NCBI GenBank assembly: GCA_963663225.1
Contig: OY760142.1
Coordinates: 948,333 to 1,012,332 of the forward strand
Direction: 5' to 3'
DNA: 64,000 nt
Source of the DNA: Nitrospirota bacterium
GTDB lineage: Bacteria > Nitrospirota > UBA9217
Shown piece after piece: positions 17,057-22,401 of this stretch. Made by a program: the position numbers and the translations under genes. The notes beneath the pieces were generated by a model. The model was not told the origin of the DNA. It worked only from the letters and a program-made list of their open reading frames with translations, and ran no database searches. Position 1 is the first letter of the stretch. Each line of letters starts with the position of its first letter.

Positions 17057-18331
17057 CTATGACGCGAGAACATACTCACCATTGCCGGGGATGCGTTTCT
17101 CCGCCGCCTCTTTGCTCACCGTCGCAGGATCAAGGGGGGCAAACCCCGTCACGTCGACGTTCCGGAGATGGGGAAGGATCTGCTGTTCCTTGTATTCACC
17201 GTTCAGTTCCTTGCGCAGGATGTTGAAAAATGTAGTGGTAATCCTTGAGTCAAACTGCGTGCCGTTGCATCTCATTACTTCGCGGAAGGCATCGCTGAGC
17301 GCCATCTTTCCCCGATATGGCCGGTCCGTGGTCATTGCGTCGAAAGCGTCTGCAAGAGTAAGAATTTTCACTCCATCACTCAATTCGGAGGACATCAGTG
17401 CGTCAGGATATCCCTTGCCATCGACCCGTTCATGATGATGACGGACAAAATACTCGACATTTTTCCACGGGAATTTGACTTTGGAAAGAATATTGTAGGA
17501 TATCTGGGGGTGCCTTTTTATTTCATGTATTTCCGGCGTCGTCAGCTTTTCACCCTTGTTGATGATGTCATGGTCTATAATTATTTTTCCGATGTCATGC
17601 AGCAGGCCCGCCACGTAAAGCCCTTCTACTTCGTTTTTCTTCCATCCCAGTTCCCGGGCAATGGCCACCGCGTAGCATGCCACCCGGAAGGAATGGTCCT
17701 TCGTATAATCGTCCTTTGCGTCGATGGCGGCGGCAAACGCCTGGATGGTATCGTGATAGATCCGCTGCATGCTGGTATAGAGCCTTCTGTTTTCAGAGGC
17801 TTTCTTGGCGAGTTCGAGGAACAGCCGTGCGTTGTGCAGGGTAATGGCCATTTGATGCGCGATGACCCTGAGAACGTCCTTGTCTCCCGCATGGAAGGGC
17901 GATCCGCCGAGTTTCCTGCCGAGTGCTATGGCACCGACGAACTCCCCCTTGGCAAAGAGCGGAATGAACATCCTGGTTTGCAGTTTGGTGAATATCTCGC
18001 TGTTCTTCCGGAAAAAAGCCGTCTTGCTCATATCGCGAACGGCCTGCGGTTCGTTCATGCGAAACCGGTTGATATATTCGCGCAAAACGGACAGCTTCAT
18101 CTCCTTTTTGACCTTGTCCCGGTAGCCCTTCTCTACAATGGGGTCGAGGCTTTTTCGCTGCGGATGATAAATAAACAATGCGGCGGTGGGTACGGAGAAT
18201 ATCCCGGTCATGACGTAGAGCGCAGCTTTCATTTTTTCCGCCAGTTCTTTTGCAGAACTGACCTCCTGGCCCAGATCAACCAGCGACTCTATGCAGAACA
18301 TCAACCGTTTGAGCTGCACTTTCTTGTTCAT
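17057..18331 (-). CDS. GAF domain-containing HD-GYP phosphodiesterase (c-di-GMP hydrolase)
   Basis: HD-GYP signature LLHDIGK ... HHERVDGKGYPD. There is an N-terminal GAF-like region. RBS AAGGAAGAGG. Confidence 0.85.
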   Translation of the reverse strand: MNKKVQLKRLMFCIESLVDLGQEVSSAKELAEKMKAALYVMTGIFSVPTAALFIYHPQRKSLDPIVEKGYRDKVKKEMKLSVLREYINRFRMNEPQAVRDMSKTAFFRKNSEIFTKLQTRMFIPLFAKGEFVGAIALGRKLGGSPFHAGDKDVLRVIAHQMAITLHNARLFLELAKKASENRRLYTSMQRIYHDTIQAFAAAIDAKDDYTKDHSFRVACYAVAIARELGWKKNEVEGLYVAGLLHDIGKIIIDHDIINKGEKLTTPEIHEIKRHPQISYNILSKVKFPWKNVEYFVRHHHERVDGKGYPDALMSSELSDGVKILTLADAFDAMTTDRPYRGKMALSDAFREVMRCNGTQFDSRITTTFFNILRKELNGEYKEQQILPHLRNVDVTGFAPLDPATVSKEAAEKRIPGNGEYVLAS

Positions 18332-18334
18332 GTG

Positions 18335-18688
18335 TTAACCTCTTCCTTTTAAAAAAATAAGAGCTTCTTCTTCGTCCTTAAAAACCCTGACGTGCTTCGT
18401 CAAGCCCACCATTTCGAAAACATCAAGGTGGATTTTTTTCATATTCGTAAAGCACAGCAGGCTTTCGTGCTCCTGGGTCCTGTGCACGATGCCCGTGAAA
18501 ATGGACAATCCGATCGTGTTGATGAACTGCACATCGGAAAAATTTACGACGAACTTTCTCACACCTTTTCCGAGAAACTGTTCGCTGGTCTGTTCAAGGC
18601 GGATCGCTCCCAGATCGTTGATATACCCTTTGGGTGTCATGACGGCGACATCCTGCGCCGATTTTGAGGTTAAAGTAAAGTTATTCAT
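18335..18688 (-). CDS. STAS domain protein (anti-sigma factor antagonist, SpoIIAA/RsbV-like)
   Basis: 117 aa. STAS fold with NFSDVQFINTIGLS, equivalent to the phosphorylatable DS(S/T)GL loop. Its start overlaps the upstream kinase gene by 8 nt. Confidence 0.8.
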   Translation of the reverse strand: MNNFTLTSKSAQDVAVMTPKGYINDLGAIRLEQTSEQFLGKGVRKFVVNFSDVQFINTIGLSIFTGIVHRTQEHESLLCFTNMKKIHLDVFEMVGLTKHVRVFKDEEEALIFLKGRG

Positions 18689-20351: not shown

Positions 20352-20352
20352 A

Positions 20353-22401
20353 TCAGGCAAAAACCTCTATGGCGTTTTTTCCTTTATTCTTGGCCCGGTA
20401 CAAAGCCTTGTCTGCATTTTCTATGAGTTTCTCGAGCGTTTCCCCGTGCTGGGGATAGCAGACAATCCCGATGCTGGCTGTGATCGCCCGCGATTCCAGC
20501 GGCTCCATGTCATCAGGGACCGTCATCTGCTTCGCAATATTGAAGCGAAGCCGTTCCGCGATTTCGATGGCGAGCGGTTCCGGAGTCTCCGGCAGGATTA
20601 CGATGAACTCATCTCCTCCGAACCTCGCAACAACGTCCATGGACCGGAGGGTGTTCAGCAACGTTTCCGCCAGCGTCTTGAGTATCTTGTCGCCGAAAAG
20701 ATGGCCGAAGGTATCATTGCAGTATTTGAATCCGTCCAAGTCCAGCATGAGGAGGCTCAGGCTGTGGTTATGCCGTTCTGACCGGGCCAGTTCATCTTTC
20801 AGCCGCTCAAACAGGTACCGGCGGTTCAAGAGGCCCGTCAGAGAGTCCGTTATCGTCAGCTTTTTAAGCTCCTCAGCCTTCGTGTATAAGTCGTTTCTCT
20901 CCATGACGATGGCGGCGTGCGTCGCGAACGATTGCACCAGTTTCAGGTCTTCTTCATCAAAAACTTCGCCGGTAGTTTTGTCCGAGAGGTTCAGCACCCC
21001 GATGGTGCGGTCTTCGATTTTAAGCGGAACGCTGACAAACGACGGTGTTTTGTAATGCTGTCTGTTTTTTTGGCGTGTTCTTGGATCGTTTTCGACGTTT
21101 TCAACGAGCAGCGGTTCGCCAAGCTCCATCACCTTCCCGGCGATCCCTTCACCGCGATTGATCCGCAGCTTCAGACCCACTCCCGCAACGACTCCTTTTT
21201 TCACTTCAAGGAGAAGCGCATCCGTCGCCTGATCCAGCAGCATGAGCGACCCCTGCTCGGCCTTCAGCAGTTCCGCTGATTTTTCGAGAATCGTGCGGAG
21301 CAGCGTTTCGTGGTTCTGAATGGGCGTTATCGCCTTCGTGAGGTCCGCAAGCGTGGCAAACCGGTTGAATTTCTTGTAGAGATCCTGGTGAAGGCGATGG
21401 TTCTCAATCGAAAGCGCCGTTTGCTGGCAGAACGTGGCGATGATCTGCTTGTCGCCCTCCTTGAGGACCATGTCCGCGATGCGCACGATGGCCTCCAGTT
21501 TTTTGCTGATCAGAACAGGGAAAAAATAAAGCGCACCCATGCCGTTCAGGAAATCAGCGCGGGGGTCCCGCACCGGTTCCGCGGAAAGAACAAACGGTTT
21601 GCCGCTGTTGAGTTCGCGGACCATCGCGTCGTGTTCGCTGATCGCAACGGCTTCCATCGGCCGTTTGCTTCGCGTCAAACTGAACTGGCTGAGGTACCTC
21701 CCCTGTTTCTTGTCCAGCGGAAGGATGGCGATTGATTCTATGTCGAGCAGAGTGGAGAGCTTTTCCACCATGTCCCGGTACAGCGCTTCGGGGCGCTCTT
21801 CGGATGCGCTGCCCCAGGTTCCCAGAATATGCTTGAGGTTCTCGAATTTTTTTCTGAGGGTAACGTTTTCCTGTGAATTCTTAAGAAGCCTGTTCACGAC
21901 ATCAGCCACAAAGCCGCAAACCTTGTAGGCATGCTCAAACGTCGTGAAGGTAAGCGGCGTCGGGATGGAAATCGTGTCAAGGCCCGCTATGCTGACAAGG
22001 TTCATGCATTCACGGAAATCCTCGTACGAGGAAAAAGATCCCTGCCCCAGGATAATTGCCTTTTCATGCATGTACTCGATCGGAAGGGAAAAGCATACGA
22101 TCTTCGCATAGCATTTGTAGATCTCGGGTTTCCCGGTCTGCAGCGGTTTTGTCATTAACGGATCACAGTACGATTTGCACTGATCCTTGAGCGCCGGCGC
22201 GGACTTCTGGAACGCGCGGCACAGCGGCAGCGCGCCCGGGGAGGCGAAGAGCAGTTGCCTGGTCTGAGAATAGATGCTCAGGGAGAAGCCGAGGCTGTCA
22301 GAGAGCGTCGTGAAGTGGTCTCGCCACGTCTCGGTCGTGAAGAGGTCCTTCAGTTCATCTCCTTTAATTGCGTTCAGCACGAGGCCTCCGACGAACCACA
22401 T
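20353..22401 (-). CDS. GAF domain-containing diguanylate cyclase (GGDEF)
   Basis: GGDEF motif RFGGDEFIVIL and the full GGDEF domain. A GAF domain lies upstream, plus an N-terminal Cys-containing sensory region. Confidence 0.85.
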   Translation of the reverse strand: MWFVGGLVLNAIKGDELKDLFTTETWRDHFTTLSDSLGFSLSIYSQTRQLLFASPGALPLCRAFQKSAPALKDQCKSYCDPLMTKPLQTGKPEIYKCYAKIVCFSLPIEYMHEKAIILGQGSFSSYEDFRECMNLVSIAGLDTISIPTPLTFTTFEHAYKVCGFVADVVNRLLKNSQENVTLRKKFENLKHILGTWGSASEERPEALYRDMVEKLSTLLDIESIAILPLDKKQGRYLSQFSLTRSKRPMEAVAISEHDAMVRELNSGKPFVLSAEPVRDPRADFLNGMGALYFFPVLISKKLEAIVRIADMVLKEGDKQIIATFCQQTALSIENHRLHQDLYKKFNRFATLADLTKAITPIQNHETLLRTILEKSAELLKAEQGSLMLLDQATDALLLEVKKGVVAGVGLKLRINRGEGIAGKVMELGEPLLVENVENDPRTRQKNRQHYKTPSFVSVPLKIEDRTIGVLNLSDKTTGEVFDEEDLKLVQSFATHAAIVMERNDLYTKAEELKKLTITDSLTGLLNRRYLFERLKDELARSERHNHSLSLLMLDLDGFKYCNDTFGHLFGDKILKTLAETLLNTLRSMDVVARFGGDEFIVILPETPEPLAIEIAERLRFNIAKQMTVPDDMEPLESRAITASIGIVCYPQHGETLEKLIENADKALYRAKNKGKNAIEVFA

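Follow-up and report, generated by a model that had tools for sequence, protein, structure and literature searches.

A conserved four-gene cassette of Nitrospirota in which a NTPase-RsbW-like/STAS pair lies between a diguanylate cyclase and an HD-GYP phosphodiesterase

Partner-switching modules are best known for the control of sigma factors. To our knowledge, only the Hsb, Sia, and Bgr systems link partner switching to a diguanylate cyclase. STAS-type proteins gate the cyclase in these systems, as in the pairs HsbA-HsbD (PMC5085249), SiaC-SiaD, and BgrV-BgrR (PMC8457831). All three systems include a PP2C phosphatase, and none possesses a NTPase-fused kinase or a phosphodiesterase. Here, we describe a cassette of four consecutive genes on the minus strand of contig OY760142.1 of a Nitrospirota bacterium (assembly GCA_963663225.1), within a stretch of 64,000 nt (positions 948,333 to 1,012,332) that is referred to below as the window. 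The cassette encodes a GGDEF diguanylate cyclase, a fusion of a P-loop NTPase with an RsbW-like GHKL domain, a single-domain STAS protein, and an HD-GYP phosphodiesterase (Table 1). Judging from its gene content and conservation, this self-contained cassette probably sets the cyclic di-GMP (c-di-GMP) level via a partner switch formed by the NTPase-RsbW-like fusion and the STAS protein. It is distinguished by the synthase and hydrolase that bracket the pair, by the lack of a phosphatase, by a kinase domain fused to a STAND-type NTPase, and by a degenerate adenine-binding box. Neither the cassette nor the combination of AAA_16 and HATPase_c_2 domains was described in the full-text literature searched, and as far as we found there, this is the first conserved STAS/RsbW pair bracketed by a c-di-GMP synthase and an HD-GYP hydrolase.

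One of the closest functional parallels is with the Pseudomonas aeruginosa HptB-HsbR-HsbA-HsbD system, which, like the cassette, combines a single STAS protein carrying a Ser/Thr acceptor with an RsbW-type GHKL domain and a GGDEF cyclase (PMC5085249). The activity of HsbD depends on the STAS protein, so that the output is c-di-GMP rather than, or besides, a sigma factor (PMC5085249). A sequence-only reading of the window had likened the cassette to HsbR-HsbA-HsbD; this is fair as a functional analogy (PMC5085249), but the cassette does not belong to the Hsb family. In that system, an Hpt phosphorelay drives HsbR, a protein of REC-PP2C-kinase architecture, whereas the cassette possesses no REC, Hpt, or PP2C domain. 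Its GHKL domain, with a degenerate G1 box, forms part of a fusion with a STAND-like NTPase, its cyclase is cytoplasmic (PocR-GAF-GGDEF), and it includes an HD-GYP phosphodiesterase. The SiaABCD system of P. aeruginosa and the BgrSTUWV-BgrR system of Sinorhizobium meliloti are likewise compact operons, encoding a diguanylate cyclase together with the kinase and the small STAS-fold protein by which it is controlled, and in Sia a phosphorylated Thr at the start of helix alpha-2 blocks cyclase binding (PMC8457831). Both have a PP2C phosphatase (SiaA and BgrU), which the cassette does not, and both are without the NTPase fusion and the phosphodiesterase that the cassette has. SiaC belongs to DUF1987, whereas the small protein of the cassette matches Pfam STAS, and the SiaD equivalog model scored the cassette cyclase at 165 against a cutoff of 290 bits, covering the GGDEF domain only. 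In stressosome-linked outputs, such as RsbR/RsbS/RsbT by a GGDEF gene in Vibrio vulnificus (PMC9237108), a GHKL kinase and STAS are also coupled to c-di-GMP enzymes and not to a sigma factor. The cassette differs from these in having no RsbR-type sensor-STAS protein and no sign of a large STAS scaffold, and in possessing a NTPase-fused kinase and both a cyclase and an HD-GYP protein. Overall, the cassette possesses a STAS protein, the GHKL fold, GGDEF and HD-GYP enzymes, and a STAND core; it lacks the PP2C gene and the intact G1 box of a canonical partner switch and falls outside the Hsb and Sia systems.

All four minus-strand open reading frames (ORFs) were present in the order and at the coordinates given by the sequence-only reading, and the domain searches it had called for (Pfam and NCBIfam) matched GGDEF, HATPase_c_2, STAS, and HD_5, in agreement with its assignments. 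The junctions that it had described were also found in the sequence. The TGA stop codon of the cyclase gene is followed, after 1 nt, by the ATG of the fusion gene at 20351. The fusion and STAS genes share an 8-nt stop/start overlap (ATGAATAA, with AAAGGAGG upstream), and the STAS and HD-GYP genes are separated by a 3-nt gap (TAA, CAC, ATG), with an embedded ribosome-binding site, GGAAGAGG, preceding the ATG. An alternative TTG start of the fusion gene at 20360 would yield 559 residues and overlap the cyclase gene. The homologues all begin with MPF or MSF at the position of ATG 20351; this start, which had been proposed before, stands, and the length given with it (557 residues) becomes 556. 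On its downstream side, the cassette meets a convergent ABC-ATPase gene, which ends at 16940; on the upstream side, an intergenic region of about 500 nt separates it from a CpXC-domain gene.

We assessed the conservation of the cassette by scanning one genome per GTDB species, which yielded 79 loci (labelled L001 onward). The order cyclase, fusion, STAS, HD-GYP on a single strand was kept in about 40 of the 43 Nitrospirota loci, each from the genome of a different species, and the fusion proteins of these 43 loci were 30–98% identical. The closest locus, L001, on a contig of an uncultured Nitrospiraceae metagenome-assembled genome (MAG), had 98% protein identity to the window. The junction lengths recurred as well: 1 nt between the cyclase and fusion genes in 25 of 38 loci, an 8-nt overlap between the fusion and STAS genes in 39 of 43, and 1 nt between the STAS and HD-GYP genes in 26 of 41. 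When the ORFs within 7 kb were clustered, the only recurring families were the four of the cassette (43, 39, 39, and at least 32 loci), followed by the CpXC gene (11 loci). The operon-like unit proposed earlier is thus kept across these Nitrospirota loci, and the conserved order and junction lengths provide strong evidence of co-transcription and translational coupling. Counts of promoter- and terminator-like sites were uninformative on separate transcription, as neither exceeded the expectation from shuffled sequences: there were two internal promoter-like sites (4.0 ± 1.9 in shuffled sequences) and 13 terminator-like sites (8.1 ± 2.7). A terminator-like hairpin (a 7-bp stem, then GTTTTTAAGG) lies at 18386-18404 on the minus strand, inside the 3' coding end of the STAS gene and before the HD-GYP gene.

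These data bear directly on the possibility that the four genes are adjacent by chance or that some of the ORFs are not genes. GGDEF, HD-GYP, and GAF genes are generically abundant, and this is all that speaks for it. All four ORFs had strong domain matches, orthologues at 38–98% identity kept both order and junctions, and a profile search of 1.84 billion representatives at 50% identity returned 186 fusion-protein clusters at E ≤ 1e-30, in two length classes. Together with the clustering of flanking ORFs, these results rule out fortuitous adjacency for practical purposes.

The fusion protein was found in two versions. A search with the window protein returned at least 351 homologues, nearly all 554–558 residues long; those with named sources were proteins of Nitrospirota or "Betaproteobacteria" MAGs, and their database names were generic ("ATP-binding protein" or "anti-sigma regulatory factor"). 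A longer version of about 740 residues, with the same four-gene order, was found in MAGs of Pyrinomonadaceae, Blastocatellia, and other Acidobacteriota. These long fusions (about 720–780 residues; L046-L048, L050-L053, and L069, from Acidobacteriota and unclassified MAGs) carry about 190 extra residues without a Pfam match between the NTPase/winged-helix module and the GHKL domain, and most are flanked by PocR-GAF-GGDEF, STAS, and HD-GYP genes. Locus L045 (Sumerlaeota) contained the long fusion and the STAS gene only. The trio of fusion, STAS, and HD-GYP genes is the most constant core of the cassette, because it was still present where the cyclase was missing (L025, L038, L043, and L050).

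Several loci deviated from the common arrangement. Two MAGs contained two complete paralogous cassettes each (L009 and L037 in MFD01299.bin.2.211; L005 and L012 in JBLMWN), which could represent parallel insulated modules or, possibly, contamination of the bins. In L028, L032, and L038, two to three small ORFs (about 105–155 residues) replaced the large cyclase upstream of the fusion gene, and one of the small ORFs of this subclade resembles the PocR-containing N-terminus of the cyclase. The cyclase was shortened to 508 residues in L029. The whole cassette of L044 (4783-10390) was split into many frameshifted ORFs, reflecting either long-read assembly errors or a pseudogenised copy, and in L006 (8703-8927) the STAS gene was truncated and the HD-GYP gene missing.

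The C-terminal domain of the fusion protein is of the RsbW type. Its HATPase_c_2 match scored 55 bits against a 27.4-bit cutoff, and profile comparison with the PDB retrieved RsbW (6m36, E 6.5e-9) and SpoIIAB (1l0o). In a confident AlphaFold2 model of the fusion protein built from 118 sequences (predicted local distance difference test 85, predicted TM-score 0.73), residues ~410-545 superimposed by Foldseek on Bacillus subtilis RsbW (6m36/6m37, TM 0.84–0.89) and also on SpoIIAB. The score of the NCBIfam RsbW equivalog, 36.5, was far below its 145-bit cutoff. The sequence-only reading had called this domain an RsbW-type serine kinase and had named a sensor histidine kinase as the outcome that would count against it. 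A histidine-kinase identity was rejected: no HisKA match was obtained, the alignment of fusion homologues contained no invariant His in residues 370-420 and no H-box, and the domain matched RsbW and SpoIIAB by sequence as well as by fold, these being its best structural matches (TM 0.89 for RsbW).

The nucleotide-binding boxes of the domain were conserved unequally. The N box (EACINAxEH) and the G2 box (RGWG) were kept in stand-alone, short, and long groups alike; E452 was invariant, N456 and H460 were conserved in at least 90% of sequences, and G511 and G513 were also conserved. In the G1 box, the window reads SIESSGQEF, and in the hidden Markov model alignment S485 takes the place of the G1 Asp of RsbW and SpoIIAB (VADEGDSF and VRDEGVGI). 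We counted the residues at this box in alignments of three groups. Among the 27 stand-alone RsbW relatives (about 145 residues), the Asp was present in 24 and the second Gly also in 24. The short fused family (n = 40) had Ser in 33, Asp in four, and Asn in three, with the second Gly kept once; the long fused family (n = 81) had Asn in 62, Ser in 16, and Asp in two, with the second Gly kept in seven. According to these alignments, loss of the G1 Asp and of the second Gly is systematic in the fused family, whereas its stand-alone relatives keep both. The G1 Asp of GHKL-superfamily proteins contacts the N6 amine of adenine. In view of this loss, the label of kinase given by the sequence-only reading is uncertain in the enzymatic sense; the domain may be a weak kinase, a kinase of altered specificity, or a pseudokinase. 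Among the RsbW homologues of Mycobacterium smegmatis, RsbW1 and RsbW3 are kinase-negative, and activity goes together with intact N, G1, and G2 motifs (PMC7693655).

According to the model, the N-terminal module of the fusion protein is a NTPase resembling STAND and Orc/Cdc6 proteins; its Walker A and B motifs are intact. When residues 1-400 were compared with the PDB by Foldseek, the matches were the archaeal proteins PAB2304 (2qen, E 3e-9) and SSO1545 (2fna), Cdc6/ORC, Apaf-1, CED-4, and plant NLRs. Among the fusion homologues, the Walker motifs are conserved as GxxGxGKT and hhhhD[DE], residues G43, G45, K46, and D167 of the window protein being invariant, and the forms GxxxxGK[ST]E and hhDD/DE are common to the short and long families. 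The fusion family also conserves GGNP[FL]Y[LI], a motif of the STAND/LAL-NTPase type (GGNPFYL in the window). Pfam AAA_16 and ATPase_2 matches to the window protein were below threshold; AAA_16 was above threshold in the L043 orthologue. The "AAA ATPase" of the sequence-only reading is therefore correct as to an additional N-terminal P-loop NTPase, but by fold the module is better named STAND/Orc-Cdc6-like. It shares its Walker motifs, its GxP-type helical domain (GGNP[FL]Y), and its winged helix with the STAND NTPases (MalT/LAL AAA_16 proteins, Apaf-1, CED-4, and NLRs) and with PAB2304 and SSO1545, and differs from them in its RsbW-like C-terminal effector. None of the repeat-type sensors of STAND proteins (TPR, WD40, and LRR) was found in the 556-residue form, in which the winged helix abuts the GHKL domain, and the long family has about 190 additional residues at this place. 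As a STAND NTPase is paired here with effectors, an anti-phage defence system was also considered and rejected: PADLOC matched neither the fusion nor the STAS protein, its matches in the cassette being generic similarities of the HD domain to Cas3 and of the palm domain to Cas10. No NCBIfam equivalog or PADLOC model covers the fusion protein.

The third gene encodes an anti-sigma-antagonist homologue consisting of a single STAS domain, as had been proposed (Pfam STAS E 2.5e-11, 43.7 bits against a 22.6-bit cutoff). TIGR00377 scored 42.5 bits, below its cutoff of 53.45 bits, and a phmmer search of the PDB matched the structures of SpoIIAA and RsfB. In the alignment with SpoIIAA, I-N-T58-I-G60 of the window protein corresponds to M-D-S-S-G, Thr58 being placed at the first Ser, at the N-terminus of helix alpha-2 and two residues before the conserved Gly. 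We take this SpoIIAA position to be the phosphorylated Ser57/58; it differs between the structures 1th8_B and 1tid_B, being altered in the latter. The acceptor position was always Ser or Thr in about 50 intact STAS orthologues, a set that also covers the long family and classical relatives. The constancy of this residue and the conserved N and G2 boxes of the fusion protein argue for a phosphorylation of Thr58; the loss of the G1 Asp and the lack of a phosphatase argue against it.

A variant of the proposed switch, differing from it in switch chemistry only, would dispense with phosphorylation altogether: the RsbW-like domain would be a pseudokinase that only binds the STAS protein, and NTP hydrolysis by the STAND module would replace the kinase/PP2C cycle. 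We regard this variant as a serious possibility, but as less likely than not. In the fused families, the loss of the G1 Asp and second Gly, the lack of a conserved PP2C gene, and the gain of a Walker-intact NTPase co-occur, whereas the PP2C-linked stand-alone relatives keep DxGxG, and the M. smegmatis proteins RsbW1 and RsbW3 are precedents for RsbW homologues without kinase activity (PMC7693655). Conversely, E452, N456, H460, G511, and G513 are near-invariant across families that are about 30% identical, from which it can be argued that nucleotide is still bound, and the STAS acceptor exchanges between Thr and Ser but never becomes Asp, Asn, or Ala, as would be expected of a phospho-acceptor. 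A more specific version is rather speculative: the STAND NTPase would provide the energy-dependent step, and the RsbW-like domain would be either a pseudokinase or a sensor of another nucleotide (candidates being guanine nucleotides and c-di-GMP itself) that feeds back on which enzyme the STAS protein engages. Sensing of another nucleotide is conceivable because the adenine-specific Asp is lost (to Asn or Ser) and the boxes binding Mg and phosphate are kept.

Neither a PP2C/SpoIIE phosphatase nor a sigma factor was detected in the cassette, and neither was conserved in the 7-kb flanks of the 43 loci, which share no fifth gene; both were also missing from the 20 larger unassigned ORFs of the window, the rest of which is housekeeping. 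The same absence had been noted in the sequence-only reading. The only phosphoesterase-type gene near the cassette encodes a calcineurin-like metallophosphoesterase (Metallophos_2, 31397-32113, minus strand). It is unlikely to be the missing phosphatase, being 9 kb away and not among the families recurring in the 7-kb flanks. These results bear on a classical switch with its phosphatase and its target (a sigma factor or another regulator) at other places in the genome; the two c-di-GMP enzymes would then be merely co-transcribed. The STAS and GHKL domains are indeed homologous to RsbV and RsbW, the 64 kb in view are only a part of the genome, and HsbA has a second, sigma-related partner, FlgM (PMC5085249). 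A classical switch is nonetheless quite improbable: abutting or overlapping linkage of four genes in about 40 species and a second phylum is hard to explain without a shared function, and no subgroup has a recurring sigma factor or PP2C gene within 7 kb.

Comparison with the classical operons indicates where the cassette may have come from. Like RsbU-RsbV-RsbW-sigmaB and SpoIIE-SpoIIAA-SpoIIAB-sigmaF of Bacillus, the cassette possesses homologous GHKL and STAS proteins (PDB matches 6m36, 1th8, and 1l0o), encoded by adjacent genes with overlapping stop and start codons, and an acceptor residue. It differs from them in the lack of a sigma factor and PP2C, the loss of the G1 DxGxG, and the addition of a 400-residue NTPase module. 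Stand-alone GHKL relatives with AVIEACINA were found in classical operons of the type RsbW-STAS-HAMP-PP2C-GAF-PP2C, for example in L049, L057, and L061 (CSSED10-310 and Thermoanaerobaculia MAGs). After the STAS gene, these operons continue with HAMP-PP2C and then GAF-PP2C, the latter lying roughly where the cassette has GAF-HD-GYP. From residue 2 onward, the GAF-like domain of the HD-GYP protein can be aligned over its entire length with the N-terminal GAF domain of a GAF-GAF-PP2C protein (E 7e-11, 20% identity). The cassette appears to derive from an RsbW-RsbV-RsbU module; HD-GYP would have replaced the phosphatase domain, RsbW would have gained a STAND NTPase and lost the G1 Asp, and PocR-GAF-GGDEF would have been added upstream; the GAF match behind this scenario could reflect a common fold alone. 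In Latescibacteria, two loci (L056, 7402-9387; L060, 4760-7417) encode fusions in which an RsbW-like domain is joined to PAS/GAF and a class III adenylate/guanylate cyclase. The L056 fusion gene is followed by a STAS gene, and the L060 contig ends right after the fusion gene. These fusions are another, apparently undescribed coupling of partner-switch components to cyclic-nucleotide synthesis.

Both c-di-GMP enzymes of the cassette look active, judging by their motifs. In the HD-GYP protein (HD_5 E 1.4e-32, 113 bits), H245-D246 and the motif HHExxDGxGYP at residues 299-309 (HHERVDGKGYP in the window) were conserved in 37 orthologues. Its assignment as a putative GAF-HD-GYP phosphodiesterase stands, with GAF matches that are below threshold in the window; GAF_3 was above threshold in the L043 orthologue. 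The cyclase had been read as a GGDEF protein with a GAF domain, and its catalytic motif was intact in 35 orthologues: it carries R586-S-M-D589, VVARF, and G595-G-D-E-F599, of which R586, D589, and GGDE were invariant and the Phe at least 90% conserved. We predict on this basis an active, product-inhibited cyclase. The first reading overlooked the PocR sensory domain, which was also found in the Acidobacteriota cyclase orthologue of L046.

The similarity of the HD-GYP N-terminus to a phosphatase N-terminal GAF domain also raises a different wiring. RsbT activates the phosphatase RsbU, and by analogy with RsbT/RsbS/RsbU, the GHKL domain, once released by the STAS protein, would dock on the GAF-like domain of the HD-GYP protein and activate it, the STAS protein acting in sequestration only. 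The position of the HD-GYP gene after STAS, where classical operons have GAF-PP2C genes, agrees with such a wiring, as do the GAF alignment and the persistence of the trio in the four loci without a cyclase. GAF domains are ubiquitous, however, and a match at 20% identity may reflect a shared fold only; moreover, the STAS protein itself is the output in the known cases of STAS-to-cyclase control (PMC5085249, PMC8457831). On balance, we consider the RsbT-like wiring rather unlikely.

For the partner switch that we favour, the following mechanism can be proposed. In general, GGDEF cyclases make c-di-GMP and HD-GYP proteins degrade it, RsbW-like domains have STAS proteins as binding partners, and STAND NTPases alternate between nucleotide or oligomeric states. 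The nucleotide or oligomeric state of the NTPase would decide whether the RsbW-like domain captures the STAS protein, and RsbW-like domains, if still catalytic, would phosphorylate it on Thr58. The free STAS protein or, reciprocally, the freed RsbW-like domain would then bind the regulatory domain of a co-encoded enzyme and shift the balance between c-di-GMP synthesis and degradation. The HD-GYP protein would be the most likely direct target, because no other neighbour is as constant as its gene, which is probably coupled in translation to the STAS gene. The GAF and PocR domains may add ligand inputs, and the I-site of the cyclase may add product feedback. We infer the protein-protein contacts, the direction of regulation, and any phosphorylation alike.

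Several points weigh against this proposal. Kinase activity of the GHKL domain is doubtful, given the residues lost from its G1 box. No phosphatase gene lies nearby, so a reversible phosphorylation cycle would need one located elsewhere, and the switch may act on a factor encoded outside the operon (a sigma factor, for example), given that only 64 kb were viewed. The NTPase of the short family is without an obvious sensor domain. Gating of the cyclase by the STAS protein received no computed support, and the most constant trio excludes the cyclase. Finally, all carriers of the cassette are MAGs of uncultured organisms.

The start of the cyclase gene was revised. The annotated ORF begins at ATG 22401; GTG 22380, which gives 675 residues, is probably the true start, because GGAGG followed by 5–6 nt and an ATG or GTG is conserved there in about 35 orthologues. 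In the window, this Shine-Dalgarno sequence lies at 22391-22387. A leader motif at 22404-22425 (consensus RAACGYTCTTCAACGACGAA), 20–25 nt upstream of the Shine-Dalgarno sequence, is moderately conserved in about 20 loci (e.g., L004, L006, L016, L022, and L033) and could be an operator or a promoter-proximal element. At the same position, L027, L030, and L031 possess a clean promoter, TTGACGC-17-TATGATAAT. The sigma-70-like site of the window (22676-22647) came from a promoter scan that was not above chance, and no -24/-12 match to a sigma-54 promoter was found in 22402-22899. A riboswitch or leader RNA was rejected: Rfam gave no match at E ≤ 1 across 16000-24000, and the RNAalifold consensus of the leader contained no base pairs. 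The intergenic region also contains a plus-strand ORF of 109 residues (22470-22799) in a low-complexity, A/T-rich context, which is probably spurious. Further upstream, the CpXC-domain gene (22900-23772, minus strand) shares the strand of the cassette in 11 loci, among which are those that diverge the most (L035, L036, and L039), and a divergently oriented GyrA/ParC-like gene (23914-26175, plus strand) accompanies it in 10 loci. These neighbours may represent conserved synteny or a functional link.

Table 1. Coordinates of the cassette and its features in the 64,000-nt window (aa, amino acids).
Feature	Coordinates	Strand	Basis or remark
Cassette of four consecutive ORFs	17057-22401	-	ORF list
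Cyclase gene, PocR-x-GAF-GGDEF	20353..22401	-	Longest ORF, 682 aa
PocR sensory domain, cyclase aa 19-170	21892..22347	-	Pfam PF10114, E 1.9e-9, 37.9 bits (cutoff 23.9)
GAF domain, cyclase aa 364-501	20899..21312	-	Pfam GAF_2, E 4e-24
GGDEF catalytic domain, cyclase aa 517-676	20374..20853	-	Pfam, E 2.8e-51; TIGR00254, E 3.5e-56
I-site RxxD (R586-D589), 5-residue spacer, GGDEF motif (aa 595-599)	20605..20646	-	Ortholog alignment
Fusion-protein gene, STAND-like P-loop NTPase and RsbW-like GHKL	18681..20351	-	556 aa from ATG
NTPase, helical, and winged-helix module, fusion aa 1-400	19152..20351	-	Foldseek
Walker A, GSRGIGKT, fusion aa 40-47	20211..20234	-	G43, G45, K46 invariant
Walker B, VAVLFDE, fusion aa 162-168	19848..19868	-	D167 invariant
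RsbW/SpoIIAB-like GHKL domain, fusion aa 408-545	18717..19130	-	HATPase_c_2, E 1e-14
Degenerate G1 box, ESSGQEF for canonical xDxGxGF, fusion aa 484-490	18882..18902	-	RsbW/SpoIIAB alignments
STAS gene, single domain, anti-sigma-antagonist homologue	18335..18688	-	117 aa
Thr58 codon, predicted phospho-acceptor	18515..18517	-	SpoIIAA alignment
HD-GYP phosphodiesterase gene, GAF-like N-terminal domain	17057..18331	-	424 aa
GAF-like regulatory domain, HD-GYP protein aa 2-176	17804..18328	-	GAF matches below threshold
Upstream intergenic region, about 500 nt	22402..22899	-	Sigma-70-like site 22676-22647, leader motif

The cassette is robustly real and widespread in two poorly studied phyla, and its function is what we infer throughout. 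If the proposed partner switch is correct, the four proteins would form a compact system, open to reconstitution in vitro, for setting local c-di-GMP through reciprocal control of its source and sink, and with them one could ask whether the kinase/phosphatase cycle of partner switching is replaceable by a NTPase switch. In that case, the proposal would also assign a function to at least 186 protein clusters (50% identity) that are now generically labelled, and would give the study of c-di-GMP signalling in uncultured Nitrospirota and Acidobacteriota a first point of entry.

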